Source: Eledone cirrhosa (taxonomy: Eukaryota). From it: a DNA stretch of 64,000 nt. A model generated the notes under the pieces. That model was not told where the DNA came from. It did not search any database and saw only the letters and a program-made list of their open reading frames with translations. Below, one piece after another: positions 6,182 to 64,000 of this stretch. The translations under genes were made by a program, and so were the position numbers. How positions within the stretch are numbered: the first letter of the stretch is position 1; each line of letters starts with the position of its first letter. The stretch is taken from assembly GCA_964016885.1 (NCBI GenBank), contig OZ024741.1, positions 193,378,001-193,442,000 of the forward strand. Reading direction: 5' to 3'.

Positions 6182-6214
6182 GTAAGACCAAAAGATGGTT
6201 AAAAGAGTTCCAAG

Positions 6215-6285: not shown

Positions 6286-7058
6286 GGGAGACATGATATG
6301 AAGCTTAAAAAACACTTGTGAATAGTGAAGTTTTAAATCAACATATGAAAAATAAATTAAGATTGATGTATGAGATTGGGAAAAAGTGAGGGGGGGGGGG
6401 TAAGGAAGAGGAAGAAATAAGAGTAAAGGATGGTAGGGGAGGAGTATAAGAAGGAAGGATGAGAGAGGTGGAGAGATGGGTGATAGAGAGAGGGAGATAG
6501 CCTTTACAACTGAGAAAAAAATATTGTCTCACAGAGAGAAATTAAAAAGCCGTTGGAAGATAATAGATAATTTCAAAGATTTTGAAATTAAAAGTTAATG
6601 AGGTTTATGCATGAAGAAAAGGAATTAAGAATAGTATTAAATTAAGGTTTGTATATTGAAGGGTTTAATAATATGTACGAAGAAAAGAATTTATTAATAT
6701 GTATTATTATTTTTCTTCATGCATAAACCTCATTAACTTTTAATTTCAACATCTTTTAAATTATCTATTATCTTCCAACGGCTTTTTAATTTCTCTCCGT
6801 GAGACAATATTTTTTTCTCAGTTGTAAAGGCTATCTCTCTCTCTCTATCACCCATCTCTCCTCCTCTCTCATCCTTCCTTCTTATACTCCTCCCCCACCA
6901 TCCTTTACTCTTATTTTTTCCTCTTCCTTACCTTTTCCACACACACACCCCCCTCACTTTTTCCCCAATCTCATACATCAATCTTAATTTATTTTTCATA
7001 TGCTGATTTAAAACTTCACTATTCACAAGTGTTTTTTAGGCTTCATATCATGTCTCCC

Positions 7059-7129
7059 TATTTTATCTGATGAGAACGGAGATATCATCGCATGATGATA
7101 TTTGTTTTTGAAATGCACATAATAAAATA
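7059..7129 (+). ncRNA. Minimal type I hammerhead ribozyme motif (inverted partner copy)
   Basis: TATTTTAT-CTGATGA (7067-7073)-GATATCATC/GATGATATT stem-GAAA (7110-7113)-TGCACA-TA-ATAAAATA. Confidence 0.78.
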
Positions 7130-7271
7130 CTTGGAACTCTTTTAACCATCTTTTGATCTTATATTATTTATACTCCAGTCCTACAAACTGTAGAGTGCTA
7201 CTTATCAGATATTTGCATTGCTTTATTGTGCTACAATAAAATTCACCTCCTACATATATATATACTCGTAT

Positions 7272-11580
<4,309 letters not shown>

Positions 11581-16519: not shown

Positions 16520-19500
16520 GCTTTCTTTATTGACCACAAGGGTTTACACAAAGTAGACATTAAAGACAATACAGGACAATACAGGACGGTACAAATGGGC
16601 ATTTCTGCGTGTAAAAAAAAAGACAGAGGATGTAACAAATAATAACAATGAAAAATTCCCCAATAGGGCGGAGACTTCCGAGGGACATTTGTGGAGAAAG
16701 CCCATTAAAAGGCCATAGTGACCCTGACCACCAGAGCAAGTGTTCTCTCCCAGTTTTCCACCTTTAACTTACAAACACATACTCAGAGTAGGCCCATTCA
16801 CTCGGGCCATTCTTGCTTCTCTCACCCATCTTTCAACAAAATGCTGAGAAGAGAGCACTTCCCTCTCTACCCTGATTTTCCTTTTCAAATGAAATTTGAA
16901 AGGCTTGATCAGGGCATCACCGAAGAGGTAAGTGCTCGTCTTCAGCCCTTTCAAACGTGTCCACCATACTATCTCTTTCACCATGGCCACCAGATAGATA
17001 AAAACTGCCTGCCCTTCCCGGCTAAAGGAAGAGGGCGGGGAAATCCTCACGATGGACTCAGCTGGTAGCTGGATCCGTCCTACACGCGACAGCAGGTGTT
17101 CGACATAAACCCACAAGTCAGCAATGCTCGGACATTGGACGAGTGCGTGCAGGACGATTTCATCGCCCTGCGCGCATCTCGGACATGCCCGGCTGACGGC
17201 ACCTCCATGCCTGTAGAGTTTATCCCGAACTGACAAAGCTCCTCGTTAGCACTGCCAAGCCAGGGATTTCTGGAGGTTGTCCATAGGCCCCGGGCCGAAA
17301 GTTCTTCCGAAGAGATTGGCTAGTTGATTTTCGTCGACGCCTAGAGTTTCCCCAAGTACGTCATCGCTCTTCTCCTCCACTAATCCTCTATAGTACGCCG
17401 AGGTGGAGTTTCCACCGATCACATTGCCCGATTGGTCGAGAGCTGTGAGCGCCTGAAGATATTCCAGTCTCCAAGCGCTACCTCTCGGTCTTCGCTTGAC
17501 CCAGGACTGCAGCTCCGTCAAGGAGACGAGCTGGGGAAAGACGCGTCTAGCAAACGGCGATCACACCTGATCACCGTAGAGGAAGAGGTGGAGATGTCGT
17601 AGCCTGAGCGCGTGTCTGCGCATCATCACGACATGCCCAGCCCTCCACGTAGCGGGTGTTGACAGCAGATGGACCGCCTGACCATCGGAGCGCGTCCCTT
17701 CCACAAAAGGCGAAAGAGCACACGATCCAGCGCATTCAGGCGTGGCTTAGAACAAGGTACAACGGTCAGGCGGTAGTAGATGACGGATGCCATGTGCGCG
17801 TTAGCCACCTCCGCTCGACCTTTCAGGGATAGCTTCCTCTCCGCCCATTTCTGGGTGAGAGAAGCCACCCTGCTCGTCACCTCGTCCCAGTGTTTGTCCG
17901 TCTGGAGGTCCGGACCGAACCAAACCCCAAGCAATTAAAGTGGTCCGTCCGTCCAGCGCCCTACGACGCTGTTGGACGGCATGGAGCTGCCTCCTCAGGT
18001 GCCGAGCTACAGGCCCACCGACTTTTCCTGGTTGATCATTGCTCCTGTCACCGCTTCGTATTCTCTTAGTGTAGTTCCGTTCGCCTCGATGTGTTTGGCG
18101 TCCGACACCACTACGTTGACTCGAGAGTCAATATGTACAAGAGGGACGAGAGGGGACATCCTTGGCGGACCGAGCGCATGATGTTGAACGGTTCCAAAAG
18201 GTGACCGTTCACTCTCACCACAGAGAAGATGTCGCTGTGCATGGCAGCGAACCAGCCTCTGAAGACGGTCCCAAAGCCAGCCGCCCTCAGGACTGCCGCT
18301 AAGTAACGATGGTCGACCCTATCGAAAGCTTTCGACTAAATTGACCAAAGACTCAGGTTCCCTAGCTACCCTCTCTACGATTTATCGCATGAGGTTGAGA
18401 TTGTCGTGGATGTATCTGTCGGGAATGGTGCATGTATGCGCCTCTCCCACCAGACCACCAACGACAAGCGTCAACCTCTTTGCTAGCACCTTGGCCAACA
18501 TCTTGAAGCCTGTGTTTAGCAGAGTTATGGGCCTGAAATCATCTATGTTATCCCCCTTGTTCGGATCCTTTCTCAGCAACGCCACAGCTCCTGGGCTCAC
18601 GGAGCTGGGAATTCTTCCGTTCTGTTGCCAGTTGCAGTAGACGTCCACCAAGAGGCCTCCAAACAAGTCTGGCATGTGTGCGTAAAGTTCATAGGGCAGA
18701 CCATCAAAACCAGGCGATTTACCCCTTGTGCAGCCAGTCATTGCCTCCCGTACTTCAGCGGCTGTTATCGGCTTTGCGCAACACTCCGCCTCAGTGGCCG
18801 AGAGCCGCGGCAGTCCGTCGAGGTAGACACTAAAGTCTATCCCTCGACCCGGCCCACCGCTGCCCCCGAACAGCTGAGCGAAGTGTCGCTGAAAAGCTTC
18901 ACACATTTTCCCGGGATCGAGTAGCATGCGCCCGTCGTGGTCCACCAAAGACCGGATCGTGGCTTTGTTGCCACGACGCGCCTCCGCCACTCGGGCCCAT
19001 TGAACGGCTTTCGTCCCCTCGTGTCTGAGAGCACACACCCTAGTTCTGACAACGCAGCCTTCGTGCTTTGCATTGAAGAATTGGTCAAGGGCCAATTTCG
19101 CCGCAAGCACGTCGGTCACGATGCCTTTGCTAAGCGCCTCGTCTAATTTTCTAACTAGTTCTCCCTCTGCTCTATTTTTCTCTATTGCTAAAGCCTTACT
19201 AAACCTAATGGATTCTATTCTAATCGCTCTTTTCAGAGTAAACCACCACTTGTTGTTGACGATGGCCCCCGTCAACGCCCGCTTAACTAGTTCGCTAATC
19301 TGGTCTCTGTATGCCTTGCGCGCTGGTAAGGACGCGTTTAGCTTCCAGTAGCCGGGTCCTCGTCTATGAAGCCTATCTAAGTCAACCACACAGATCACGA
19401 ATTTGTGGTCCGTGTAGCTGATTATCTTGAATTGTGGACAGCCTATGCTAGACCTATCTATTTCCCTACAAAATACTCTATCTAGATATGATCTGGATGA

Positions 19501-21630
19501 CCAGATGCGATTTGTCCAAGTCCACATTGGCACTTTCGGGAAATCCAATCGGTACCTGTCAGACAGTTCAAAACGCCTGAGCAGGTTGGTGAGGCTCTTG
19601 CACCCTCCACTCTATCCGCTAATCCCACACAGTCCCAGCGTGAATCTAAGATCCCGTTCCAGTCGCCCACTAACACTAAAGAGCGGGACGTTCCAAGAAA
19701 GTTCTCCAGACGCCGGAAGAAATCAGGCCGCCCTGCTTCTGTCGGGGCATAGACGGCCACTAGCCTGAAAGCTTGCCCGTCTCTGCTGGTCACGTCCAGC
19801 ACCACCAACTTACCCTCTGGGTCAAGGAAGATGGCCCGTATGGCGAGATCCAAACCTCTCCGAAAAAGTACAGCAACTCCTCCCTCCGATCCAGGACGGC
19901 TGGGAGATGCGTACACATCGTAGCCGCCGAAGATCGGTGCGAAGGCCCGTGCTTCGGAGATTCTGGTCTCGCTGATGGCCACTACATCTATGTTTAGTGA
20001 CCTGAGGTCGTTGAGCAGGTGACCCTGCTTCCATGACGACCCCAAGCCATGCGCATTTATGCTGCCTATTCTGAGTGAGGTCATGTTTAAAATAGAGTGG
20101 AAAAGATGGGAAAGACCACTTACCGTACTTTTCGTAGAGGAAGGATGGTTTCTCCATCCCTTTTCACTTGATCGTCTGGTGAAGGGACCGTTGAATTGTC
20201 CCTTCGGCTGGTCGTCGGCTCTTCTATGAGTATGTTCGAATATACTCTCCGGTTGAGAGTCCCTCCTAGGTCTCTGAAATCACCAACTGCGTTGGGGAAT
20301 TTCGTTTTAATGTTTGTGTATTGTTTCTGTGCTATTTTTAGCAGTCTTATATTCGTTGGCGTTTTGATTGGTGCTGGTATTATGTAGTCGTGCTGTGAAA
20401 TGTCTGTGTTCAATTATGTAAGTCATTAGTTTCTTGTGTGTATTTATTGCCGTAAATTTGTTTTTCTGAGGGTGGAGTGTGGTGCTGCTATTTTCTTGTC
20501 GTTGTTGCTGGGTGTGTGTGTTTTGTTGTGTTTGCGATGTTGGTACGTCTACTATCACATACTTTCTGCCTCGAGTGATGTGGGTTTTGCGTGCCCAGAC
20601 GCACCCCAAGGCCTTTTGGATTTGAGCCTTCGTGGCTCTCTCCACTCGATGTGAGATTTTGCTTACGGTGCGGTAAGTCACCGTCCGTAGCTGCTGGTCC
20701 TTGAAAAAATTGGGTGGAGGTTTCAGGGAAACTCTATTTGCGCTTCTTGTCACCATGGCCCCTGCGACTGCCATCTCCTCCTCTGTGACTAACACTGTCT
20801 CGATATTTCGGGCGACACCTGCAAAAGAAGTGGTCCCTTTTTCAGCAGCACCACTATTGCTGCCGCTACTGGTCTTACTGGTGGTGCTAAGGTCGCTATT
20901 ACAGGTATCGGTGTCATTCTTGTTGTTTTCGCTGGTACAGTTGTTGGTGTTGTTGTTGTTGTTTTCGTTGATACTATTGCTGTTGTTACTGTTATTGTGG
21001 CTGTTATTATTGTTCTTTTTGTTGATACTGTTCCTACTATTATTGTTGTTGTGGCTGTTGTTATTGTCATTGTTATTGTCGTTCTCGACCTTACCGCTGT
21101 TATTTTTGTTATTGTCGTTCTCGACCTTACCGCTGTTATTTTTATTATTGTCGTTCTCGACTTTACCGCTGTTATTTTTGTTGTTGCTGTTGTTATTGAT
21201 GGTGTTGTTGTTGGTGTTGTTGTTGGTGTTATTGTTGGTGTTGTTTGTGTTAGAAATATTTGTTAATTTTAAATCTGTAACAATCTTTTTTTCCTTTGTA
21301 ATATTTTCGTTTATATTTACCTCCGCTGGAACGCTGTCTTGTTGACATGCTGATAAAGTCTCCCTCTCTCTGTGTTGTCTGACAGCGCTCTCTCTCTTTC
21401 TTGTGTTATCCATGTTGAAAATTTTCAAAAACAATATTTTTGCACAAGTACGAATACGACACCCCGTAAAGAGGTGCCGTATTATTTACTATTGAACCCT
21501 TGTATTAGGTGGGTCACTTCTTCTAAACTTTTATCAAATTTAAAACTTGAATAAAAAGTTTAGAACGGTTGAAAAAGAGGTAAAACGTTGAAAAAAAACT
21601 GGAGGCGATAAGAAGCGTGGCTTCACCAAC
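16520..21630 (-). mobile_element. Tx1-like (L1-clade) LINE copy A: 5' UTR, Asn-rich ORF1, ORF2 (APE-RT-Cys/His), 3' UTR; decayed
   Basis: SINAHGL..ISETR, AVYAP, GDWN, TDHK, GYWKLN, KSPGFDGLP, RPITLLN, CPRC..HALVQC; YADD region deleted near 18115; both ends abut (TAA)n. Confidence 0.93.
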
Positions 21631-21651
21631 AATAATAATAATAATAATAAT

Positions 21652-21746
21652 TGTTTCTACTTTAAGCACAAGGCCAGAAATTAACCAGTGCATTACTGGT
21701 ACTTTATTTTATCGACCCCGTAAGGATGAAATGCAAAGTCAACCTC
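21652..21746 (-). mobile_element. 5'-truncated SINE in (TAA)n
   Basis: 3' half of the young SINE; AATAATAAT on both sides. Confidence 0.85.
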
Positions 21747-21755
21747 AATAATAAT

Positions 21756-22077
21756 CTGGAGATAGAAATTGGAAAAATGTGGAAATTGAGAACTAAAACA
21801 ATACCAGTGGTTGTAGGCGTTCTAGGAATGATACCTAAGGGGTCTAATGATTACTTATCGCAAATCCCAGGAAACCCACGTATAGGAGAAATACAAAAGA
21901 TAGTACTAATGGGAACTACCCATATACTAAGGAAGATTCTGTCAATATAAGTACATCACAAAGATGCATGTGTATGTATGTTCTTTCTTGAACATGGCGG
22001 ACCTTGTTGTCTCTTGAGGTCACTGGTTGTGACCTGGTGATAACTCGTATGAGCATAAAGCAAGATAAATGCAGCTG
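21756..22077 (+). mobile_element. Dong/R4-type 3' fragment
   Basis: LEIEIGKMWKLRTKTIPVVVGVLG..IQKIVLMGTTHILRK; flanked by (TAA)n. Confidence 0.85.
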
Positions 22078-22090
22078 TAATAATAATAAT

Positions 22091-22277
22091 TGTTTCTACT
22101 TTTGGCACAAGGCCAGCAATTACCCAGTGCATTACTGGTACTTTATTTCATCGACCCCATGAGGATGAAAGGCAAAGTTAACCTTGGCGGGATTTGAACT
22201 CAGAATGGCAAGGGACGTAACTCTATGCGTCAAAGCATGGCGTCCGACCCTCTACCGATACTGCCAATCCACCGCCC
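22091..22277 (-). mobile_element. Full-length young SINE in (TAA)n
   Basis: A and B boxes, core TTTCATCCTCATGGGGTCGATGAAATAAAGTACCAG, tail. Confidence 0.92.
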
Positions 22278-22578
22278 AATAATAATAATAATAATAATAA
22301 TGATAATAATGATGATGATGATGATTCATGAAAACGTGTTGTTTAATTCATCAGAAACATCCTGTTTTAATGTCATTTTGGCGCCAATATCGGTGAATTA
22401 GTTGTCAGAAAAATATTGAATTTTATTGTTCCTTGCTTGTATGTGCAGACGTTTTAATTAGTTAAAAAATCCGATAGCAGCAACAACAGCATCAATAACA
22501 ACAGCAAATAGGAAAACAAAACAAAATAATAATATAAGCAATCTTAGTGATAGTAATAATAAATAAAAAAATAATAAT

Positions 22579-22756
22579 GATTTCTTTATTAACCACAAGG
22601 GTTTACATAAAGTAGACATTAAGGACAGTGCAGGACAATACAGGACGGTACTAATGGGCATTTCTGCGTGTAAAAAACAAAAGCAGAGGATGTAACAAAA
22701 AAATAACAATGAAAAATTCCCCAATAGGAGGGAGACTTCGGAGGGACATTTGTGGA
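22579..22756 (-). mobile_element. Tx1-like 3' UTR-only insertion
   Basis: Homologous to 16520-16695 and 22785-22965; TAA runs on both sides. Confidence 0.88.
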
Positions 22757-22784
22757 AAAAAATAATAATATTAATAATAATAAT

Positions 22785-25700
22785 GCTTTTTTTATTAACC
22801 ACAAGGGTTTACACAAAGTAGACATTAAGGACAGTACAGGACAATACAGGACGTTACAAATGGGCATTTCTCCGTGTAAAAAAAACAAAAAATAGAGGAT
22901 GTAACAAAAAAGGAATCAATGAAAAATTCCTCAATAGGGGGGAGACTTCCGAGGGCCATCGTGGAGAAAGCCCATTAAAAAAGCCACGGTGACCCTAACC
23001 ACCAGGGCAAGTGACCTCTCCCAGTTTTCCACCTTTAATTTACAAACACATACTCAGAGTAGACCCATTCACACGGGCCATTCTTGCCTCTCTCACCCAT
23101 CTTTCAACAAAATGCTGGGAAGAGAGCATTTCTCTCTCTACCCTGACTTTCCTTTTCAAATGAAATTTTAAAAAGTTAATCAGGGCACCACCGAAGAGGT
23201 AAGTGCACGTCTTCAGCCCTTTCAAACAAGTCCACCATACTATCTATTTCGCCATGGCCACCAGACAGATAAAAATTGCCTGCCCTTCCCGGCTAATGGA
23301 AGAGGGCGGGGCAATAATCACGATGGACCCAGCTGATAGCCGGATCCGTCCTACACGCGACAGCAGGTGTTCGACATAAACCCACAAGTCAGCAATGCTC
23401 GGACACTGGACGAGTGCGTGCAGCACGGTTTCGTCGCTCTGCGCGCATCTCGGACATGCCCGGCTGACGGCACCTCCATGCTTGTAGAGTTTATTCCGAA
23501 CTGGCAAAGCTCCTCGGTAGCACTGCCAGGCCAGGGATTTCTGGAAGTTGTCCATAGGCCCCGGCCCGAAAGTTCTTCCGAAGAGATTGGCTAGTTGATT
23601 TTCGTCGACGCTTAGAGTTTCCCCAAGTACGTCGTCGCTCTTCCCATCCACCAATCCTCTATAGAACGCCAAGGTGGAGTTTCCACCGGTCACATTGCCC
23701 GATTGGTCGAGGGCTGTGAGCGCCTGAAGACATTCCAGTCTTCAAGCGCTCCCTCTCGGTCTTCGCTTGACCCAGGACTGCAGTTCCGTCAACGAGACGC
23801 GCTGGGGAAAGACGCGTCAAGCAAACGGCGACCACACCTGATTACCGTCGAGGAAGAGGTGGAGATGTCGTAGCCTGAGCGCGTGTCTGTGCATCATCAG
23901 CCACGGCATTCCAAGCCCTCCACGTAGCGGGTGTTGACAGCAGATGGACCGCCTGACCATCGGAGCGCGTCCCTTCCACAAAAAGCGAAAGAGCAAACGC
24001 TCCAGCGCAGTCAGGCGGGACTTAGGACAAGGCACGACGGTCAGGCGGTAGTAGATAACAGATGCGATATACGCGTTAGCCACCTCCACTCCACCTTTGA
24101 CGGATTGCTTCTTCTCCGCCCATTTCTGGGTGAGAGAAGCCAACCTGCTCGTCACCTTGTCCCAGTGTTTGTCCGTCTGGAGGTCCGGACCGAACCAGAG
24201 ACCTAGCAATTTAACCGGTCCGTCCGTCCAGCGCCCGACGACGCTGTTGGACGGCATGGACCTGCCTGTCCAGGTACCGAGCTGCAGGCCCACTGACTTT
24301 TCCAGGTTGATCATTGCTCCTGTCACCGCTTCGTATTCTCTTAGTGTAGTGCCGATCGCCTCGATGTGTTTGGCGTTCGACACCACTACGGTGACATCGT
24401 CCGCATATGCTGACACGGATCCTCCGCATCCTAGTTCGCGCGGGACCCCCTCAACGTCTCCAGTTTGTGCAGTAATGGCTCGAGAGTCAATACGTACAAC
24501 AGGGACGAGAGGGGACATCCTTGTCGGACCGAGCGCATGAAGTTGAACGGTTCCGAAAGGTAACCGTTCACTCTCACAACAGAGCAGATGGCGCTGTGCA
24601 TGGCAGCGATCCAGCCTCTGAAGACGGGCCCAAAGCCAGCCGCCCTCAGGACTGCCGCCAGGTAACGATGGTCGACCCTATCGAAAGTTTTCGACTGATC
24701 TAAATTGATCAAGGACCCACCCGTGCCAGGATCCCTAGCTACCCTCTCCACGATGCATCGCATGAGATGGAGGTTGTACGTCGGTCGCGATGCCTTTGCT
24801 AAGCGCCTCGTCTAATTTTCTAACTAGTTCTCCCTCTGCTCTATTTTTCTCTATTGCTAAAGCCTTACTAAACCTAATGGACTCTATTTTAATATCTCTT
24901 TTCAGGCAAACCACCACTTGTTGTTTATGATGGCCCCCGTCAACGCCCGCTTAATTAGTTCGCTAATCCGGTCTCTGTAGGCCTTGCGTGCTGGTAAGGA
25001 CACGTTTAGCTTCCAGTAGCCGGGTCCTTGTCTATGTGCCTATCTAAGTCAAGCACACAGATCCCGAATTTGTGGTCCGTGTAGCTGACTATCTTGAATT
25101 GTGGACAGCCTATGCTAGACCTATCTATTTCCCTACAAGATACTCTATCTAGATATGATCTGGATGACCCTATGCGGTTTGTCCAAGTCCACATTGGCAC
25201 ATTCGGGAAATCCAATCGGTACCTGTCAGACAGTTCAAAACGCCTGAGCAGGTTGGTGAGGTTCTTGCAGCCTCCTCCCCTATCCGCTAATCCCACACAG
25301 TCCCAGCGTGCATCTAAGATCCCGTTCCAGTCGCCCACTGACACTAAGGAGCTGGACGTTCCAAGAAAGGTCTCTAGACGCGGGAAGAAATCAGGCCGCC
25401 CTGCTCATGTCGGGGCATAGGGGGCCACTAGCCTGAAAGCTTGCCCGTCTCCGCTGGTCACGTTCAGCACCACCAACTTACCTTCTGGGTCCAGCAAGAT
25501 GGCCCGTATGGCGAGATCCAAACCTCTCCTAAAAAGCACATCAACTCCTTCCCCCGATCCAGGACGGCTGGGAGATGCATACAGATCGTAGCCGCTGAAG
25601 ATCGGTGCGAAGGCCCGTGCTTCGGAGATTCTGGTCTCGCTGATGGCCACTACATCTATGTTTAGTGACCTGAGGTCGTTGAGCAGGTGGCCCTGCTTCC

Positions 25701-27609
25701 ATGACGACCCCAGGCCACGCGCATTTATGCTGCATATTCTGAGTGAGGTCATGTTGAAAAGGAGTGGAAAAGATGGGAAAGACCACTTACCTTACTTCTC
25801 GTAGAGGAAGGATGGTTTCTCCATACTTTTCACTGCTTCTGGCCTCCTCCGGAAGGATGTCCTTATAAATCCTCCTGGAGAGTGCTTGTCGGAAGTCTCC
25901 GATGTCTTTGGGGAATTTTTGTTTTAGTGTCCTGTACGTTTTCTATGTGATGTGAGTGATTTGTATGTGTGGAGGTGGTGTGAACTTTTGGGGTGTTCTG
26001 TAGTCTTTTTCTGTGATGCTGGTGTTGTGTTGGATGTAGTGTAATAATTGGTTGTTGTTCAAATTTAATGCTGTGTAGTGTGTATCGTTTTGGTTGACTT
26101 GTTTTGTTTGCATTTGTTGTGGGTTTGTTTCTGTTTCGCTTTTGGTGACTTTTGTGGTGTTGGTGATGGTGATGGTGTTGGTGTTTGTGGTGATGGGGTT
26201 GGTGATGTTGGTGTGGATGGTGGCATAGCTGTCCTAACGCTTTTGTTTGTTAGTTTATTTGTTTCCCTCTGTATTTTGTTTTTGGAGGGGGAAGGAAGGG
26301 GAATTTTTCTTTTTTGGGTTCTTTCTCTTTTTTCTTTTTTCCTGATACAGTTTCCCACTCCTCGTCGTCACAATCAGTCTTCAGTTGCGATAGGTCGGGG
26401 AGTGGAACATCCTCCACATGCGTTGGTTTTGGTTGTGGCGTGGTGGATGCTGGAAGCGCTGGTACTAGTTCTGACGCGGTGGGTGGTGGTGGTGTTGATT
26501 TTGCTACTGTTGCTGGGGTTGTTGCTGTTACAGTTACTTCTGTTGTTGCTGCTACAGTTGTTGCTGCCATTTCTGCTGCTGGTGGTGTTGATGGTTGAGT
26601 CACCGTGGTGGGTAAGAAAGGTGGCCTTAACTTTTTAGCCTGAGGGCAGAAAGCCTTTAGGTGGGTTCCTTCACCACAAACGACACACGTAGGCCTTCTA
26701 CCCTCAACGATTACGGTGAGGTGGCTGCCGTCAGTGAGTTCTATCACCTCTGGGATTTCCTCAATGCTTTTTTGGTCCCCTTGGATCAGGAGCTCCATCC
26801 CAGATCCGGACCAGTTCTCCTGCTTTTCTTTTGTTATTTCAATTATTTTGGTGTTGGCTTCGATGCCGGCGAGGACGGCAGCCATTAGCTAGGGAATTTC
26901 GATGGTCGGTGGAACGTGGGTCACCCTGATCTTCACGAGTCTCTGGCCACAATAGCATGGGACGAGTGTGAAGTCGTCGCTTCTTAATGGGGCCATAGAG
27001 TGCTCTCTGGCTTCCTGTGGGGTTCCAAAGAACACGTCCACAGTTCCATACTTCTGCTCACGTCAGATGTGGGATTTTTCGCCTATACATGTCCCAAAGC
27101 TTTTTGTATTTGGGACTCGGATGCCCGTTCCACTCGGCGTGATTTTGTGTTTATCGGCCGATATGACACGGTGCATAGGCGCCGATGCTCCATTTTATTA
27201 GGTGGGGGGGGGGCTGACCCTGTACCCATCTTTTTTAAGACCTGCAGTTATTGATAATGGCGGGAAATGAATGTCTGCATGAGACAAATTTAAATTATTG
27301 CTATGCTACTGCTTATATTTTTAGTGTTGGCAAACGTAGTAATATTTACAATGATGGTGTTGGTGTGAGGTGTTAGTTTGTGAGGAAGGCTCTCAGCTTC
27401 GTGTGGCTGTGAGTCGTCCATAATTTTTTCAAAGAAAGTTTTTGTTTCATAATTATAAAAGTTTAAATTTTGGGCTCAATCTTTTTGAGTGTCCTTTTCA
27501 GAAAGCAATATATGTGAACTTATAAACGCTTAACAACAAACATTTTCCATAACAGGCAATTTGAAACAACTGAAAACAACAAACCTTACGATTTCCTACG
27601 TAGATCGCC
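22785..27609 (-). mobile_element. Tx1-like LINE copy B with a different ORF1 (CCHC knuckle)
   Basis: ORF1 piece has CVVCGEGTHLKAFC; ORF2 has APE, VRQGCPLS and SAYADD; large deletion at about 24778; (TAA)n at both ends. Confidence 0.92.
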
Positions 27610-27618
27610 AATAATAAT

Positions 27619-27802
27619 TGTTTCTACTTTAGGCACAAAGCCAGCAATTACCCAGTACATTACTGGTACTTTATTTTATTGACCCCGTAAGGATGAAAGG
27701 CAAAGTTAACCTCAGCGGGATGTGAACTCAGACTGTAAAGGGGCGTAACTATGCCAGAAAGCATGGCGTCTAACCCTCTACGGATACTGCCAATTCACTG
27801 CC
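27619..27802 (-). mobile_element. Young SINE in (TAA)n between two Tx1-like copies
   Basis: Homologous to the other copies; TAA runs on both sides. Confidence 0.9.
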
Positions 27803-27804
27803 TC

Positions 27805-27836
<32 letters not shown>

Positions 27837-27838
<2 letters not shown>

Positions 27839-30800
27839 TTTCTTTATTGGCCACAAGAGCTGACATCAAGAAAAACATTACAGACGGCACAGGACGGTAC
27901 GGTGTGGGTTTTGTGCGTGTAAAGATTTTTATTATTTATATAAGAAAATAAAAAAAGACATAGAAACATATATATATAAACAATAAAAATGAAAATTGAA
28001 AAAATGAAAAATTCCCCAATAGGGGGAAATCCTCCGAATGGTTACTCGTAGCGAAAACCACACAAAATACCACGGCCACCCTGACCACCAGGACAAGCGC
28101 CCTCTCTCAATTTTTCCATTTCTCAAACTACAGGCGTATATTCAGAGCGGTCCCGTTCACTCGGACCATTCTCGCTACATTCACCCACCTTTCAACAAAC
28201 TTGCTAGAAGGCAGCACTTGCCTCTCCACCCTGATTTTCCTCTTCAAGTGAAACTTGAAAAAGTTAATCAGGGATTCGCCGAAGAGGAAAGTGTCTGCCT
28301 TTAACCCTTTCAACCTTGTCCACCACACAATCTCTTTCGCCATGTCGATAACCGGATCAGTCCTACAGGCGACAACAACTGTTCGACATAGCTCCACAAG
28401 TCAGCAATGCTCGGGCACTGAACGAGTGCGTGCACTATGGTTTCGTCGCTCTACGCGCATCTCAGACAGGCTGGGCTGACGGCACTTCCGTGCCTGTAGA
28501 GCTTATCTCAAACCGGCAACGCTCCCCGGTAGCACTGCCAGGCCAGGGATTTTTGGAAGTTATCCATAAGCCTTGGGCTGAAAGTTCTCCGGAAGAGAGC
28601 AAACAGCTGATCTTCTTCGAAGCCCAGGATCTCTCCGAGAACGTCGTCGCTCTTCCCCTCCACTAGTCCTCTATAGAACGCCGAGGTGGATGTTCCACCG
28701 ATACTGGTGCCCAGCTGGCAGATGGCGGTGACCGCCTGGAGACATTCCAGTTTCCAAGTGCTATCCATCGGTCTTTTCCTGACCCAGGACTGCAGCTCCG
28801 TCAAGGAGACGAGCTGTGGGAAAACGTTCCTGGCGAACGGCGACCACACCTGTTCACCGTCAAGGACGCACCAGAGATGTCCAGTCCTCAACGCAACGGG
28901 TGTTGACAGCAGATGGATTGTCTGACCATGGGAGCGTGTCCCTTCCACAAAAAGCGGAAAAGGAGGCGCTCCATTTTGGTCAGAGTTGAGGCGGGGCAAG
29001 GGACGACAGTGAGGCGGTAGCAGATGACGGATGCGATGTATGAATTCGCCACCTTCGACAGGCCTTTCAGTGACAGCTTCCTCTCGGCCCATTTCTGGGT
29101 GAGGGAGGCCACCTTGCTCGTCACCTCGCTCCAGTTTTTCTCCATCTGGAGGGCCGGTCCGAACCAGACCCCGAGCAATTTAACCGTTCCGTCCGTCCAA
29201 CGGCCCACGACGCTGTCGGACGGCATGGACTTGTCTCTCCAGATGCCGAGCTGCAAGCCCAGCGACTTTTCCTGGTTTATCTTTGCTCCTGTCACCGCTT
29301 CGTATTCTCTGAGAGCGGTGCCGTCGGCGGCGTAAGCCGACGCGAATTTGCCGCATCCTAGTTCGATGGTCCGATGGTCGACCCTATCAAATGCTTTCGA
29401 TTGATCCAAGTTGATCAGGGCCCCACCCGTGCCAGGTTCCTTAACCACCCTCTCTATGATGTATCGCATGAGGTGGAGGTTGTCTTGTATGGATCTGTCC
29501 GGAATGGCGCATGTCTGCGCCTCTCCGGCCAGACCACCAACGACAAGCACCGACCTCGTTGCTAAGACCTTGGCCAAAATCTTGAACTCTGCGTTTAGCA
29601 GAGTTATGGGCCTTAAATTATCGATAACATCCCCTTTGTTCGGGTCTTTTCTCAGCAGCGTCACTGCTCCCCGGCTCACAAAACTGGGAATGCTCCCGTT
29701 CTGCTGCCAGTTGCAGTAGACATCTGCCAAGAGGTCACCGAACAAGTCTGGCATAAATGCATAAATCTCGTAGGGCAGACCATCCAAACCTGGCGATTTA
29801 CTCCTCGTGCAGTTAGCCATCGCTTCCCGTATTTCACCGGCTGTTATTGGCTTTTCGCAACACTGTGCTGTGGTCGTCGAGAGCCGAGGCAGTCCGTCGA
29901 GGTATGGACTGAAGTCCATGCCCCGATCCGGCCGCCGCTGCTCCCGAACAGTTCAACAAAGTGCTGCTGAAGAGCTTCACACATCTGCTTGGGTTCGAGC
30001 ATCACGCACCCGTTTTAGTCAGACAAAGACCGAATTGTGGCTTTGTTGCCACGTCGCGCCTCTGCCACCCGGGCCCATTGGACGGCTTTTGTCCCCTCGT
30101 GTTTCAGAGCTCGCGCTCTAGCTCTGACAACGCAGCCTTCGTGTTTTGCGTTGAAGAATTGGTCGAGTGCCAATCTCGCCGTAAGCACGTCGGTTGCGAT
30201 GCCTGTTCTAAACGCCTCTTCTAGCTTTCTGACTAGCTCTCCCTCTACTCAATTTTCCTTTATCACTAGTCCTTTGCTAACCCTAATCGACTCTACTTAA
30301 TTGCCCTTTTCAGAGCGAACCACCACCTGTTGTTGACGACCGCTCCCGGCAACGCCCGCTTAACTAATACGCTAATCCGGTCTCTGTAGGCTTTGCGCGC
30401 CGGGAACGAAGCGTTCAGCTTCCAGTAACCGAGTCCTTTCTATGAAGTCTGTCTATGTTGATCTCACAGATCACAAATTTGAGGTCTGCGTAGTCGACTA
30501 TTTTAAATTGTGGACAAGTTCTCTGCCGAATACCCTATCGAGATACAATCTGGATGACACGATGCGGTTTGTCCATGTCCACATTGGCACATTCGGGTGA
30601 TCCAGTCGATACCTGTCAGACAGTTCAAAACGTGTGAGCAGGTTGGTGATGCTCTTGCACCCTCCTCCCCTATCCACTAGCCCCACACAATCTCATCGTG
30701 CATCCAAGATCGCCCACTAACACTAAAGAGCGGGACGTTCCAAGAAAGGTCTCTAGACGTCTAAAGAAATCTGGCCTACCTGTCCCTGTCAGGGCATAGA

Positions 30801-31445
30801 CGGCTACTAGCCTGAAAGAGTTGCCTTCGGTGCCGCTTACGTCCAGCACCACCGACTCACCTTCTGGGTCCAGGAAGATGGTCCGTCTGGCGAGACCCAA
30901 ACCTTTCCGAAACAACACACCCACTCCGCCCTCCTCTCCCGGACGGCTCGGAGATGTGTACACCTCGTAGCTGTCGGAGATCGGTGCGAAAGCTTGCGTT
31001 TCTGAGATTCTTGTCTCGCTGATGGTCACCACATCTATGTTTAGTGACCTGAGGTTGTTAAGCAAGTGACCCTGCTTCCAAACCGAGCTCAAGCCACGCA
31101 CGTTTACACTTCCCATACTAAATACGGCTATGTTGGGTGAGGAACGGGGCAAGTGAGAAAAGATCACTTACCTTGATCGTCTGGTGAAGGGACCGTTGAA
31201 CCGTCCCTTCGGCTGGTCATCGGCTCTTCTGTGAGTATATCCGAGTATACTCTTCTGTGAGTATATCCGAGTATACCCTCCTAGGTCTCTGAAATCACCA
31301 ACTGCGTTGGGGAATTCCATTTTAATGTTTGTGTATTGTTTCTGTGATATTCTTACTAGTCGTATGTTCGTTGGTATTTTGATTGGTGCTGGTATTATGT
31401 AGTCGTGCTGTGAAATGTCTGTGTGTTCAATTATGTAAGTCACTT
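27837..31445 (-). mobile_element. Tx1-like LINE copy C, 5'-truncated, several internal deletions
   Basis: ORF1 C-terminus, APE (30670-31167), RT (28888-29919), 3' UTR ending AATAAAGAAATC then ATT. Confidence 0.92.
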
Positions 31446-35395: not shown

Positions 35396-35847
35396 CGCGA
35401 CCATTTTTCTTACCTGATCATATCACTGCCACTGCCATCTCACACATACACACACGCACCACACACTCCCTGCAACTACCCACAATTTCTTTCTCTATCC
35501 TATTTCACTATAGCCTTGCATTTCTACCCGGATACATGCATTTACCTCAGCCTTCCTGACTTTCGAACTCCTGGATTATACCCATCTCGGAGCCTACGCA
35601 TATGTACACACGCACACACCTATACATGCAACCATACCACTATACACACGCTCACACATATGTACAAACACACACCTCCACCAACAACACTTTCCACCTA
35701 CACACACGCAAACTCACAGTAATGTTCACCCCACCTACATACACCGTCGGCCTCACCCCCACCAGTATACCGGACTACTCCTCCTCTCTCCTCCTTTATA
35801 TTTTTTTATTTTAGTAATTTCTTCCTAGCGTTATTTGAATTACCTAC

Positions 35848-36033
35848 GGCGGTGGATTGGCAGTATCGGTAGAGGGTCGGACGTCATGCTTTGACGCATA
35901 GAGTTACGGCCCTTTCCATTCTGAGTTCAAATCCCGCCGAGGTCAACTTTGTCTTTCATCCTTACGGGGTCGATAAAATAAAGTACCAGTAATGTACTGG
36001 GTAATTGCTGGCCTTGTGCCTAAAGTAGAAACA
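35848..36033 (+). mobile_element. Full-length young tRNA-derived SINE (Meta/MESC-like core) with 14-bp TSD
   Basis: A box TGGCAGTATCGG; B box GAGTTCAAATCC; core TTTCATCCTTACGGGGTCGATAAAATAAAGTACCAG; TSD TTATTTGAATTACC at 35831-35844 and 36035-36048. Confidence 0.93.
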
Positions 36034-36366
36034 ATTATTTGAATTACCATTTATTTATTTTTATTTTTTGCCTTTTTCAGTCTTTAACGTTATTTTCTTT
36101 GCTATTTTCCTTTTGTGTTATTCCTGATGAAGGGCAAATACTCGATACGTTGGCTATATAACTCATTCTTCTTTCTCGAAGCGTGAAATTAATACATTTA
36201 ATGTTATTGCATCCTCTTGTTCGTTCGTTTCGTCTTTCCTTGACTTATACCTCCACGCTTACGCGGACTCCTACTCTTACCTCGGATTACCCTCGGATTG
36301 CCCTTCACCACTCCAGTATATGCCTACGGACTCCAGCGTCTGAATCTTTGTAATACCCCCCCCCCC

Positions 36367-42580: not shown

Positions 42581-43814
42581 GTTGGTGAAGCCACGCTTCT
42601 TATCGCCTCCAGTTTTTTTTCAACAGTATACCTCGTTTTCAACCGTTCTAAACCTTTTATTCAAGTTTTAAATTTGATAAAAGTTTAGAAGAAGTGACCC
42701 ACCTAATACAGGGGTTCACTCGTAAATAATAGGGCACCCCTTTACGGGGTGTCGTATTTGTGTAAAAATATTTTTTGAAAAAAAAGATTTTTCAACATGG
42801 ATAACACAAGAAAGAGAGAGAGCACTGTCAGACAACACAGAGAGAGGGATACTTTAACAGCATGTCAACAAGACAACGGAGGTAAATATAAACGAAAATA
42901 TTACGAAGGAAAAGAGGAACAATATCATTTTTAATGATATTGTTACAGATTTAAAATTACCAAATATTTCTAACATAAACAACATCAACAAGAACACCAA
43001 CAACAACACCATCAATAACAACAGCAACAACAAAAATAACAGCGGTAAAGTGGAGAACGACAATAACAATGACAATAACAATAGCCACAACAACAATAAT
43101 AGTAGGAACAGTATCAACAAAAACAACAATAATAACAACATCCACAATAACAGTAACAACAGCAACAACAGTACCAACGAAAACATCAACAATGACATCG
43201 ATACCTGTAACAGCGATCTCAGCACCACCAGTAAGACCAGTAGCGGCAGCAATAGTGGTGCTGCTGGAAAAGGGACCACTTCTTTTGCAGGTGTCGCTCG
43301 AAATGTCGAAACAGTGTTAGTCACGGAGGAGGAGATGGCAGTCGCAAGGGCCATGGTGACAAGAAGTGCCAATAGAGTCTCCCTGAAACCTCCACCCGAT
43401 TTTTTCAAGGAAAATCAGGGTGGAGAGGCAAGTGCTGCCTTCTAGCAAGTTTGTTGGAAAGGTGGGTGAATGTAGCGAGAATGGTCCGAGTAAATATACG
43501 TCTGTAGTTTGAGGGATGGAAAAATTGAGAGAGGGCGCTTGCCCTGGTGGTCAGGGTGGCCGTGGTCTTTTGTGTTGTTTTCGCCACGAGTAACCCTCGG
43601 ATGTTCTCCCCCCCCCCCTTATTGGGGAAGTTTTCCTTGTTTCAATTTTCATTTTTATTGTTTATATATATATATGTTTCTGTCTTTTTTTCTTTTTTTC
43701 TTTTCTTATATAAATAATAAAAAAATCTTTACACGCACAAAACCCACATCGTACCGTCCTGTGCCGTCTGTAATGATTTTCTTGATGTCAGCCCTTGTGG
43801 CCAATAAAGAAATC
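42581..43814 (+). mobile_element. 1234-bp internally deleted Tx1-like element D with both termini
   Basis: 5' end same as copy A (GTTGGTGAAGCC); joins near 43410 to the C-type ORF2 end and 3' UTR; (ATT)n on both sides. Confidence 0.92.
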
Positions 43815-43842
43815 ATTATTATTATTATTATTATTGTAATTA

Positions 43843-43987
43843 CTCTTTGAGTCTCAGTCATTGATGTTAGTTAACTGGAAAGTTTGTTGAAATGAATATC
43901 AAGCCACTACCTGCAGCCTCAGATATTCAGGACGTATCGGAGGGTTCTTGCTGTTCCCAGCAAGCATGCCTTTTGAAGCGTTCCAAA

Positions 43988-44056
<69 letters not shown>

Positions 44057-44790
44057 GTTCTTTGAGTCTCAGACATTGATGTTAGTTAACTGGAAAGTTT
44101 ATTGAAATGAATATCAAGCCACTACCTGTAGCCTCAGATATTCAGGGCGTATCGGAGGGTTCTTGCTGTTCCCAGCAAGCATGCCTTTTGAAGTGTTCCA
44201 AAAAGCGGGGCGAGGCCAATTTTCTTTAACCATCCTTGGAAACACATTGAGATAGTACCTAGTGCGCCTATGACAATCGGGACCACTTTGACTTCATGGC
44301 AGTTCCAAATCCTTTTTACCTCCCACTTTAAGTCCTGGTATCGATTAATTTTCTCCCTCTCCTTCTCTTGCACTCTCGTGTCGAATGGGCAGGCCACGTT
44401 ATTATTAAGTCACGTATTTGTGTAGGTTGTTTTTCTCCATCTGAACACAGTCCTCTATGCTGATAAGACCTCTTCCGCCTTCAGATCAACATCACTCCTT
44501 TTGTGGAACATGTTGTAGATAGTCAATAGCTTCTTAGTCTCCCTATCCATTTCTTTTTGTTCAGCAATATTCCATCTCAGAATTCCCGCACTGTACCTAA
44601 TAATAGACACAGCTCGGGAATTTACTGCACTTATGGCATTCCTACTGTTCAGATGTGACTTTAATACGCTCCTTACTCTCCGAATGTATTCAGATCTTAT
44701 CAATTCCTTCATTTTTTTTTTTGTTCTTGATGTCATCTGCCTCCAGAACACCTAAATATTTGTATCGCTCTTCAGCATCAATTACATTTA
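43843..44790 (-). mobile_element. Two tandem Dong/R4-type 3' fragments (43843-43990 and 44058-44790) separated by (TTA)n
   Basis: YKYLGVLEADDI, YIRRVRSVLKSHLN, EKINRYQDL, VPIVIGALG, LQKACLLGTA; duplicated 3' UTR. Confidence 0.88.
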
Positions 44791-44816
44791 TCATTATTAT
44801 TATTATTATTATTATT

Positions 44817-45064
44817 GTTGTAGGAGGAAAACTGGAAGAGGGCATTTTCCCTAGCGGTCTGGGTAACCGTGGCTTTTCTTGTGGGCTCCCTCTCCACGAG
44901 CACTCCTCGGGGGTTTCCCCACTTTTGGGAATTTGTCATTGTTTCCTTTTGTTTTTGATTTTGTTTTTATACACGCAGAAATGCCCATTTGTACTGTCCT
45001 GTATTGTCCTGTACTGTCCTTAATGTTATACTTTGTGTCAACCCTTGTGGTTAATAAAGAAAGC
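44817..45064 (+). mobile_element. Tx1-like 3' UTR fragment E
   Basis: Ends AACCCTTGTGGTTAATAAAGAAAGC then ATTATT; (ATT)n upstream. Confidence 0.85.
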
Positions 45065-45169
45065 ATTATTATTTATTATTGTTATTGGTCTGATCGAACG
45101 TCTTTTTGTTCGCTTTCGTAAGTCTCTTTATTTACCTGTCATGAATTATTTATTGTTAAATTTTTATCG

Positions 45170-56587: not shown

Positions 56588-56660
56588 CATATATGTGTTA
56601 TGTATTTCTGTAGAAAAGGTAAAGGAAATAAGAGTGCTCTATGTATAGTACAGAGCTATC

Positions 56661-56926
56661 TAATTACATAATAAACAATACAATATAATTATTCCATTAC
56701 CAAAGGTTTCAAGAAACTAGACGATCTTTACAGAAACATCCAGCCCGTTCATCAGATGAAACAGTTGTTTTGGATATAAGTTTTAAAATAGATATCTATT
56801 TCAAAACTTATATCCAAAACAACTGTTTCATCTGATGAACAGGCTGGATGTTTCTGTAAAGATCGTCTAGTATCTTGAAACCTTTGGTAATCGACTAATT
56901 ATATTGTATTGTTTATTATGTAATTA
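56661..56926. mobile_element. 266-bp near-perfect palindrome with a hammerhead in each arm (56692-56761 minus, 56826-56895 plus)
   Basis: Centre GAT/ATC at 56793/56794; minus arm TTTCAT-CTGATGA-GCTGGATG/CGTCTAGT-GAAA-CCTTTGG-TA-ATGGAA. Confidence 0.85.
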
Positions 56927-57293
56927 TATATATGTGTGTATGTATTGTATGAATGTATTTATATATGTGTGTATATATATATATATTAAAATAACAGATT
57001 AAAGTTTAAGCAAAGAATCGCTGCTTTCACCCTGAAACTGAAAAAAAAATCAGTCTGTGAACGCAGAAGTAAATATTCGAAAGACGTTGCAGCCGAAGGG
57101 AAACAGGATACTTTGGTTCGTGAAGACGTTCCCTGGCAATTGACGGAAAAAAGCGAAGATAATACGTCGTTATGTGGAGCGTGGAGAACGATTACATGGA
57201 ACAACAAAACCACGTTTATGGTATAAATGGAGTTGTAGACTAATATTCTATTTAGGAAACCGAATGATTCTCGGCTTCGGAGGTAAGAATAAT

Positions 57294-57473
57294 TGTTTCT
57301 ACTTTAGGCACAAGGCCAGCAATTACCCAGTGCATTACTGGTACTTTATTTTATCGACCCCATAAGGATGAAAGGCAAAGTCAACCTCGGCGGGATTTGA
57401 AATCAGATCGTAAAGGGACGTAACTATGCTGGAAAGCATGGCGTCCGACCCTCTACCGATACTGCTAATCCAC
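57294..57473 (-). mobile_element. Young SINE with 17-bp TSD
   Basis: TSD TCGGAGGTAAGAATAAT at 57277-57293 and 57474-57490; empty paralogous site near 53851-53867. Confidence 0.93.
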
Positions 57474-57844
57474 TCGGAGGTAAGAATAATGTAAATAAAT
57501 TAGTAGAACGAAAATGACAGAGGTTATTAAAATCATAAAAGTAAACATATATACATTCACACATCTAAATACGTACATACACATGCATACGCAAAACACA
57601 CGCCATGTATGCATATACATGCACGCACACATAAACACGCGCACACGTACGTAAAGCGGCACGACACATATACCCGCACACATACGAACGTATACACCAA
57701 ATACACATAAATATATGCGTATATGTATACATATAATTATATATACATATGAAAATCTACACGCATAGATGTGTTTTTAGTAACTACACAGCTCCTTTCG
57801 TATCTTATCATTTTATATATACATATATATACATACATATATAG

Positions 57845-62746: not shown

Positions 62747-62925
62747 TGTTTCTACTTTTGGCACAAGGCCAGCAATTATCTCAGTGTATTACTGGTACTT
62801 TATTTTATCGACCCCGTAAGAATGAAAGGCAAAGTAAACTCGGGATTTGAACTCAGACAATAAAGGGCCGTAACTCTATGCTGCAAAGCATGGCGTCCGA
62901 CCCTCTGCCGATACTGCCAATCCAC
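62747..62925 (-). mobile_element. Young SINE with 17-bp TSD
   Basis: TSD TCAATAATTATAATAAT at 62730-62746 and 62928-62944. Confidence 0.92.
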
Positions 62926-62944: not shown

Positions 62945-64000
62945 GATTTATTTATTGGCCACAGGGCTGACATCAAGAAAAACATTACAGATGGCACAGG
63001 ACGGTACAGGACGGTACAATGTGGGTTTTGTGCGTGTAAAGATTTGTATTATTTATATAAGAAAAAGAAAAAAGACGTAGAAACATATATATATATAAAC
63101 AATGAAAAATTCCCCAATAGGGGGGAAACGTCCGAGGGTAAAGGGTGGCGAAAACCACACAAAAGACCACGGCCACCCTAACCACCAGGACAAGCGCCCT
63201 TTCTCAATGTTTCCATTCCTCAAACTACAGGCATATATTCAGAGCGGTCCCGTTCACTCGGACCATTCTCGCTACATTCACCCACCATTCAACAAACTTG
63301 GTAGAAGGCAGCACTTGCCTCTCCACCATGATTTTCCTCTTCAAGTGAAACTTGAAAAAGTTAATTAGGGATTCGCCGAAGAGGAAAGTATCCGTCTTTA
63401 ACCCTTTCAACCTTGTCCACCACACAATCTCTTTCGCCATGGCCACCAGGCAGATGAAAACCGCCTGCCCTTCCTCCTCGAAGGAAGACGGCGAGAGCAT
63501 CTGCACAATGGACTAAGTCGATAACCGGATCGGTCCTACACGCGACAGCAACTGTTCGACATAGCTCCACAAGTCAGCAATGCTCGGGCACTGAACGAGT
63601 GCGTGCACGACGGTTTCGTCGCTCTGCGCGCATCTCGGACAGGCTCGGCTGACGGCACTTCCGTGCCTGTAGAGCTTATCTCGAACCGGCAACGCTCCCC
63701 GGTAGCACTGCCAGGCCAGGGATTTCTGGAAGTTATCCAAAGGCCCTGGGCTAAAAGTTCTCCGGAAGAGAGCAAACAGCTGATCTTTTTCGACGCCCAG
63801 GATCTCTCCGAGAACGTCGTTTCTCTTCCCCTCCACTAGTCCTCTATAGAACGCCGAGGTGGATGTTCCACCGATACTGGTTCACAGCTGGCAGAGGGCG
63901 GTGAGCGCCTGGAGACATTCCAGTTTCCAAGGGCTATCCCTCGGTCTTTTCCTGACCCAGGACTTCAGCTCCGTCAAGGAGACGAGCTGTGGGAAAACGT
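62945..64000 (-). mobile_element. Tx1-like copy I (C-type 3' end), runs off the window
   Basis: Close match to 27837-28830; 3' end abuts TAA repeats. Confidence 0.92.

Follow-up and report, generated by a model that had tools for sequence, protein, structure and literature searches.

The closest described systems are pairs in which a LINE and a SINE have the same 3' end. In the L2 clade, UnaL2 with UnaSINE of the eel as well as ZfL2-1 and ZfL2-2 of the zebrafish have a shared 3' stem-loop end and no poly(A) in the DNA, with a conserved loop and a replaceable stem (PMC4176376, PMC3747384). For the ZfL2 proteins, both the cognate loop and intactness of the stem are required, which is a precedent for loop-specific and stem-dependent binding (PMC4176376). 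In this work, a SINE and a LINE of Eledone cirrhosa were found to resemble these pairs in the shared end and in the absence of poly(A) from the DNA. They differ from the L2-clade pairs in that the LINE belongs to the L1/Tx1 group, only 24 nt are shared, the stem has 3-4 bp, insertion is sequence-specific and binding is predicted. Furthermore, the repeat that follows the element consists, in the resolved copies, of target DNA.

An L1-group 3' end common to a tRNA-derived SINE has been reported for ZmSINE2 and ZmSINE3 with LINE1-1_ZM and for SINEX-3_CR with L1-1_CR (PMC3472496, PMC3747384). Like the pair described here, these plant and algal pairs were deduced from sequence; they share ~50-80 nt, and the Chlamydomonas pair ends in poly(A) (PMC3472496, PMC3747384). 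The maize/sorghum pair has a hairpin with compensatory changes, and both the loop and bases 3' of the stem are conserved (PMC3472496). The present pair, on the other hand, involves an animal Tx1-type lineage and a microsatellite target. Of the 58 pairs tabulated in 2013, the available text names no more than three SINEs whose tails are of the L1 clade, and these come from plants or algae (PMC3747384, PMC3472496), and the table as available contains no animal L1 or Tx1 partner (PMC3747384). The published case for strict L1-group recognition, as presented in PMC3472496, likewise consists of three plant and algal SINEs.

In animals, the crocodilian SINEU is also thought to be moved by a Tx1 element, Tx1-Mar, with a shared target and with tandem insertions one duplication apart (PMC4494074). 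SINEU differs in its snRNA heads and its Mariner target, and its link to Tx1-Mar was drawn from target, age and 5' heads and not from a shared tail (PMC4494074). Other Tx1-clade LINEs also insert into microsatellites, namely Kibi at (TC)n, Koshi at (TTC)n and crocodilian families at (TTCC)n/(TTTC)n (PMC4494074, PMC3812793), whereas the LINE studied here goes to Y|ATTATT and (ATT)n; for the Kibi/Koshi-type families the available text mentions no partner SINE. Dong of the R4 clade is (TAA)n-specific (PMC3812793), which is the same microsatellite class, and elements of this kind are present in the arrays described below. They differ from the LINE studied here by the opposite orientation, an unrelated 3' end and the lack of a match to the SINE tail.

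In an annotated octopus genome, SINEs account for ~11.6%, most of the recently active SINE families are unclassified, and 80 L1-Tx1 families are listed, with no SINE partner named in the available text (PMC13282606). An octopus SINE-Tx1 pair is likewise absent from the available text of PMC4758252, PMC4824008, PMC8967140, PMC10294476, PMC5786205, PMC9115989 and PMC3531059. No shared-tail animal Tx1 pair was found in the literature searched; the SINE or its partner may already be named in Repbase, Dfam or SINEBase. The named octopus SINEs OK, OR1 and OR2 (from a 1994 paper) and Twin are possible prior names.

The SINE and the Tx1-type LINE

The SINE examined here is a full-length member of the short subfamily with a tRNA-type head (35848-36033, plus strand, 186 nt) and is ~90% identical to the other copies in the window, i.e., the whole analysed stretch of 64,000 nucleotides. 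Its head contains an A-box-like TGGCAGTATCGG at 35858-35869 and a B-box-like GTTCAAATCC at 35925-35934, both judged by the box consensus; neither ARAGORN nor Rfam returned a tRNA match for the head. The element is short, non-coding and high-copy and has target duplications and box-like motifs, as is usual for a tRNA-derived SINE. Two forms occur, a short one of 186 nt and a long one of ~216 nt. In 990 kb of evenly spaced DNA (99 stretches), 138 SINE ends were counted, which extrapolates to roughly 4 x 10^5 copies in the genome.

The LINE pieces in the window carry APE (PF03372), RT (PF00078) and zf-RVT (PF13966) domains. The ORF2, with an N-terminal APE, an RT and a C-terminal cysteine motif, is accompanied by a separate ORF1, which is the architecture of the L1 group. 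Full-length copies measure 5.8-6.0 kb, and one of them has open frames of 669 and 1,150 codons. The closest solved relative of ORF2 is LINE-1 ORF2p (E 7e-50), while R2 reached only 1e-20. The RT region scored 206 bits (42%) against an alligator protein whose automatically annotated name is 'transposon TX1 uncharacterized 149 kDa', and 96.7 bits against human L1. In a 42-row tree built without curated Tx1, Kibi, Koshi or human L1 rows, the LINE grouped with the TX1-named protein (85/86 support), apart from plant L1 and RTE; an Argonauta protein 71% identical to ORF2 fell in the same clade. The Tx1 name did not appear in the homologue searches, the cluster look-up or the protein atlas, and the RT-region search alone gave one. 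A CCHC knuckle (C-X2-C-X4-H-X4-C) is present in the F3 ORF1 and in decayed forms in F1 and F2 copies; Pfam gave no match on four ORF1 pieces, with neither an RRM nor Transposase_22 detected. A CCHC-type ORF1 is linked to Tx1 in the available account of ORF1 types (PMC5203782). By domains, RT scores, ORF1 and tree position, the LINE stands on the Tx1 side of the L1 group, and the label 'Tx1-like' of the first-pass annotation can be retained.

Three LINE subfamilies, 75-84% alike over ORF2 DNA, were distinguished. They end in ACC-CTTGT-GGT (F1), GCC-CTTGT-GGC (F2) and GGCC-CTTGT-GGCY with AATAAATGAAA (F3), and F3 branches before F1 and F2 in the tree. The stem is kept over this divergence. When 30 loci were picked by the zf-RVT domain alone, 28 ended in this motif and the other two were interrupted. 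Poly(A) was found at none of the 28 ends. The absence of a poly(A) tail, which had been claimed for the family, is thus correct for the genomic DNA, but for the DNA only; an AATAAA signal is kept in every subfamily just before the end, and the LINE RNA may therefore still be polyadenylated. The SINE has no AATAAA.

The common 3' end and the target site

The three ends on which the first-pass annotation had based its proposal were all located. In the SINE, the predicted hairpin at 36010-36020 consists of GGC (36010-36012), CTTGT (36013-36017) and GCC (36018-36020). It is followed by a 13-nt spacer at 36021-36033, made up of a variable 6-mer (here TAAAGT), AGAAA (36027-36031) and two terminal bases (CA, 36032-36033). 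LINE D (42581-43814, plus strand) is an F2 copy in which the 5' part (42581-43411) is joined to the last 407 nt (43408-43814), ~4.3 kb being missing inside; its end occupies 43791-43814, with the hairpin at 43791-43801 and AATAAA at 43803-43808. LINE E (44822-45064, plus strand) is a 243-nt 5'-truncated copy of F1 type whose end lies at 45041-45064 and whose hairpin lies at 45041-45051. Copy I (62945-64000, minus strand), the 3' part of an F2 LINE that runs to the window edge and has its 3' end at 62945, lacks one T of the loop, as had been noted.

The pattern CTTGT-N9-AGAAA-NN-ATT, with at most one mismatch, occurs 15 times in the window (nine SINE-type and six LINE ends) against 0.16 expected, and none of 100 shuffles reached 15. 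Across the genome (3.0 Gb), the exact pattern followed by ATTATT gave 188,693 matches and its reversed control 2. Separate counts gave 132,507 exact short-SINE ends, a lower bound for SINE copies, and 11,308 LINE-type ends. The third LINE type, F3, has one more base in the spacer and 2,579 exact ends; the 355 matches to a pattern that excludes the main F3 context represent variants and not the size of the F3 family. The last 20 bases of the LINE-type end alone gave 11,792 matches, and the first 100 listed all lay, by eye, behind the hairpin region, a minority of them with a point change. Anchored on the SINE's last 24 nt without gaps, F2 is identical at 16, F1 at 15 and F3 at 11 positions. Since only 29 of 1,177,168 non-element positions reach at least 16, the 15-16 anchored identities exceed chance. 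The match is also specific among the LINEs examined: five other LINE ends, placed by eye, agree at 5-8 of the 24 positions, so the SINE tail fits none of them better.

SINE copies were anchored on the body and not on the hairpin, with 166 of 189 anchors usable. The 11-nt hairpin was unchanged in 100/135 short and 14/31 long copies and AGAAA was present in 119/135 and 23/31, respectively, while the 6-nt spacer showed many recurrent variants. The proposal that loop and spacing are kept holds for the quoted ends, but F3 has one more base between loop and junction; measured from the base of its 4-bp stem, the distance is still 13 nt. Similarly, the CUUGU loop is shared by the SINE and F1-F3 but varies in sister Tx1 families, which keep the stem with loops CUGGU, CAUGU, CCUGU or CUUGU (five ends, among them L051, L309, L078 and L307). 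The loop is therefore not fixed across the lineage. In these sister families the end is followed by TATC or TATA (TATC/TA targets) instead of ATT.

The stem had been described as covarying three ways. Three stem variants do exist, but they amount to two independent double changes, and the inner C-G pair never varies. RNAalifold on 16 hand-picked and related 3' ends predicted a 3-bp stem, with the outer pair G-C in 12 and A-U in 3, the middle pair C-G in 9 and G-C in 5, and the inner pair invariant; CCTTGTG and GAAA were invariant in sequence. The covariation score of these related rows exceeded 500/500 shuffles and all slid controls, whereas the number of covarying pairs was matched by 265/500 shuffles and is not beyond chance. 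The hairpin was predicted with a probability of 0.74-1.0 in LINE 3' UTR folds (three copies) and 0.00-0.12 in whole-SINE folds (four copies). In 56-nt folds the values were 0.44-0.62 (LINEs), 0.47 (short SINE) and 0.21 (long SINE), and the SINE end folded no better than its shuffles (z -0.60 and +0.69). Loss of one pair from the F3-type GGCC/GGCC stem would also yield the stem of the SINE. A longer lower stem, in which the junction CAUUA is paired, was considered as the shared signal and rejected, since it is predicted for F1 and F2 only.

ATT does follow both elements, but it belongs to the target DNA, which the first-pass annotation had not said. These bases open the target-site duplication, which is 10-20 nt long and lies at Y|ATTATT, and they are not a tail, a finding that is new here. 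At the SINE of 35848-36033, TTATTTGAATTACC flanks the element on both sides, as (G)TTATTTGAATTACC at 35830-35844 and as (A)TTATTTGAATTACC at 36034-36048 (both plus strand), and it is the latter copy that had been recorded as ATT. The junction bases come from the target, because the GTT after the SINE at 5405-5586 (minus strand, 19-nt duplication beginning GTT) recurs in its upstream duplication.

Among 100 full-length SINE copies, 18 with another element ending at the 5' flank were set aside, and 82 were tested, part of which had been fetched by a pattern requiring ATTATT. An exact flanking repeat of at least 10 nt was found in 46 of the 82, and in 30 it was non-simple (10-19 nt), leaving 52 copies without a non-simple exact duplication. 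The mismatched-pair control gave 44/1,500. In 23/30, the non-simple duplication follows the last base of the element directly, and the base before the site in the 25 at offset 0-1 is always a pyrimidine (C 16, T 9). The bases following the 138 unbiased SINE ends of the 990 kb were A128 T120 T130 A119 T119 T105. LINE duplications are harder to resolve because most copies lie in (ATT)n or nested arrays. Of 118 LINE ends examined, 76 had a defined 5' boundary, and the 14 full-length copies among these are all flanked by ATT-rich sequence (13 flagged, one degenerate). Offset-0 duplications were seen at L136, L209 and L214, two of them by eye. Only 363 LINE ends fitted a short-run pattern; of 50 short-ATT ends, 10 had a 12-19 nt duplication from offset 0 (two by eye), nine of these beginning after C or T, and 14 ran off the locus. 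LINE E has a duplication of ~18 nt (44802-44819 and 45065-45083, one extra T). By comparing both elements, as had been suggested, the same Y|ATTATT site, offset 0 and 10-20 nt length are obtained, with longer ATT runs after LINE ends (median 4 vs 2 units, n = 41 and 81, p = 4e-5).

In an element-blind scan of the 990 kb, 13 of the 16 non-simple direct repeats starting with ATTATT enclose the SINE, none of the remaining three ends in an A-tail, and none of 15 repeats starting with AATAAT encloses it. The two elements also nest within each other: 30/187 LINE ends are followed by a SINE and 25/187 by another LINE head, and LINE pieces occur at SINE ends too (L125, L254). In the window, a SINE (62747-62925, minus strand) has inserted precisely where copy I ends on its 3' side, with ATTATTATAATTATTGA as its 17-nt duplication, and another (57294-57475, minus strand) has a 17-nt duplication, ATTATTCTTACCTCCGA. 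The pair thus has a shared end, a shared site, a precise junction, no A-tail, no added repeat in resolved copies and mutual nesting.

Recognition of the SINE and rival explanations

The Tx1-type LINE lineage very probably mobilises the SINE, as judged from sequence. The partnership is well supported because duplications starting with ATTATT mostly enclose the SINE and poly(A) is missing at all 28 LINE ends. A relaxed, poly(A)-recognising L1 does not fit these same 28 ends or the dominance of one SINE among the ATTATT duplications. Mobilisation by hairpin recognition had been proposed at the outset; this LINE is the only one examined that matches the SINE in end, target and duplication, while the hairpin step of that proposal is a predicted one. 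We infer that stringent hairpin recognition is the best single mechanism. The account that takes the shared last 24 bases, the site and the 10-20 nt duplication together, with ORF2 copying both RNAs via the predicted CUUGU hairpin, appears somewhat more probable than not; the narrower claim that the predicted 3-4 bp hairpin is required as a structure is only slightly favoured.

According to this account, the LINE ORF2 protein would grip the predicted 3-4 bp CUUGU hairpin near the 3' end and copy both LINE and SINE RNA; in ZfL2 the tail is bound by the segment between endonuclease and RT. From the biology of APE-type LINEs, the endonuclease would be expected to nick the bottom strand at 5'-AATAAT|R-3', the duplication would result from another nick at a distance of 10-20 nt, and copying would be target-primed. 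The RNA may run on into the donor's own duplication (AUUAUU), which would pair with the freed DNA end; pairing of read-through RNA with the primer has precedent in R1, R2 and L2 elements. The hairpin and the 13-nt spacer with GAAA would set the register, and copying would begin at the first AUU. AATAAA probably ends the LINE Pol II transcript slightly further on, so that poly(A) may exist in the RNA and remain uncopied. With every insertion, the 3' junction of the new copy would become another ATT site (in LINEs mostly one preceded by C), and this would explain the head-to-tail arrays. More tentatively, an animal Tx1 (L1-group) enzyme may be strict by means of a 24-nt module that combines the hairpin, a 13-nt ruler and GAAA, ignore poly(A) and prime on read-through AUU at Y|ATTATT, with one of the main octopod SINEs as its passenger. 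The most likely origin of the SINE tail is a captured 3' end of an ancestral LINE, and the Pol III SINE has lost the AATAAA signal of the LINE.

The partner may be the same and the handle another: ORF2 would select by primary sequence (CUUGUG, GAAA) and by read-through AUUAUU paired with the target, and the hairpin would serve the LINE only or be a relic of the captured tail. The poor prediction of the hairpin in whole SINE RNA (0.00-0.12), a covariation that consists of two events only, the invariance of CCTTGTG and GAAA over the 16 aligned ends, and a longer lower stem open to F1 and F2 but lacking in F3 and the SINE all agree with such a handle. However, both arms have changed together between SINE and LINE and again between F1 and F2, sister families keep the stem while the loop changes, and the SINE hairpin is fixed across subfamilies in which the spacer drifts. 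Moreover, long-range pairing predicted in whole-RNA folds is unreliable, and a 3-bp stem can be held by a bound protein. We consider selection by primary sequence unlikely, although it is the most serious competitor to hairpin recognition.

Copying of the SINE mainly by an older or extinct Tx1-lineage member with a looser target, so that living F1-F3 no longer carry it, would fit the failure to find the SINE's own GGC/GCC stem in any LINE among the first 100 listed of 315 variant ends, and also the shorter ATT runs and greater divergence of SINE copies. Divergence from their own majority was 6.7% (n = 103) and 13.4% (n = 20) for SINE copies, and 2.5-4.4% for sampled LINE ends, a sample that favours intact ends. 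Such an extinct partner is nevertheless improbable: the youngest short-subfamily SINEs are down to 1.1% from the majority and overlap the LINE range, SINEs are inserted at the junctions of F1-F3 and LINE pieces at those of SINEs, and the difference in run length can stem from LINE arrays and microsatellite growth, because spacers in tandem LINEs are often 18-21 nt, i.e., one duplication long. Hardly credible is a carrier from another clade (Dong/R4, RTE or CR1), with the Tx1 likeness due to chance or to convergence on AT-rich sites. Dong/R4-like elements do use the same microsatellite and abut 34/187 LINE ends, and rare LINE families were missed because the survey covered 590 kb plus the window. 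Yet Dong-like ends lie in the opposite orientation, RTE-like and CR1-like ends are followed by other repeats, the by-eye placed ends of these families match the SINE tail at only 5-8/24 positions, and repeats starting with AATAAT enclose the SINE in 0/15.

With a Tx1-type LINE as the favoured partner, the pair names a likely carrier for one very abundant octopod SINE family. The pair is also relevant to the question of which mode of recognition came first in the L1 group, the strict or the poly(A)-based one, and a 24-nt signal with natural variants of stem, loop, spacer and target makes this question testable with few mutants. If the strict reading is true, stringent recognition would exist in an animal L1 branch beside the relaxed mammalian L1, a very small portable tag for site-specific insertion would be available, and the sister families with other loops and other targets would serve as natural controls. 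If the hairpin is dispensable, the finding reduces to a Tx1-dependent SINE with a microsatellite target, of use for annotation and otherwise ordinary.

Arrays and neighbouring elements

A head-to-tail array of four LINE pieces and three SINEs, all on the minus strand, occupies 16520-31340 of the window. It contains a decayed near-full-length LINE with an F1 body and an F2-type head (16520-21630; ORF1, APE, RT and zf-RVT pieces, same 3' end), a 182-nt F1 3' fragment (22579-22760) within the ATT run of the next copy, a decayed F1 LINE with internal deletions (22785-27607) and a 5'-truncated F2 LINE (27837-31340) with a SINE after its ATT run. The SINEs are a 5'-truncated copy directly upstream of the LINE head at 21630 (21652-21746), a copy inside an ATT run (22091-22276) and a copy between two LINE copies of the array (27619-27802). 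Genome-wide, LINE ends recur at ~6-kb spacing on one strand, often with spacers of 18-21 nt.

Five of the 50 short-ATT LINE ends (L224, L241, L254, L259, L264) are inserts of only ~19-27 nt, i.e., hairpin and spacer, and four of them have a 12-18 nt duplication; L224 is a 27-nt insert with a perfect 17-nt duplication. The hairpin may be a place where 5' truncations accumulate, as would be expected if reverse transcription stalled at it. At L261, a full-length LINE is flanked by a repeat of at least 50 nt from the junction, far beyond the usual duplication length. A further hairpin, CCCC-TATT-GGGG, lies 130-200 nt before the LINE end (window 43608-43628). All of F1-F3 keep it and the SINE lacks it; the end motif was reached from 83 of 86 anchors of this kind, and the hairpin may be a second cis signal.

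At least five different 5' heads (first 300 nt) were found on the three ORF2 subfamilies (L121, L130, L132, L201, L205), four of them with a long hairpin directly before ORF1, which suggests that 5' ends have repeatedly been swapped among the LINEs. A candidate fifth head proved to be the reverse complement of a second Dong-like 3' end and was dropped. A SINE-type hairpin in the LINE 5' UTR was considered as the source of the tail and rejected, as it occurs in 6/19 copies of one head and in no other head; this CUUGU-loop hairpin is a loop variant of a longer hairpin.

Other LINE families were surveyed as carriers from frames of at least 170 codons in 590 kb plus the window, using a Pfam scan (77 frames) followed by reading of the ends. 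Two families, presumably of the Dong/R4 clade by a C-terminal motif, end in (AAT)n and lie tail-to-tail with Tx1-type LINEs in the same microsatellites (L036, L043 and others). The ends of one of them (23 ends) are followed by YAATAATAA on the sense strand, in the opposite orientation, and Dong/R4 was rejected as SINE partner on this orientation and the unrelated end. The window copy at 43836-44790 (minus strand) has its 3' end duplicated. RTE-like ends are followed by (GAT)n or (TA)n and a CR1-like end by (TA)n. Abundant RTE-like LINEs that end in (GAT)n have a PHD finger directly after the RT (L045, L065, L068, L072, L080), and at 8262-11580 (plus strand) lies a decayed RTE-like LINE in which pieces of APE and RT remain and which is followed by (TA)n. 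Long inverted repeats at 6172-7172 and 56650-56937, with arms of 230-245 nt at 93-94% and a 144-nt spacerless palindrome, are probably derivatives of DNA transposons.
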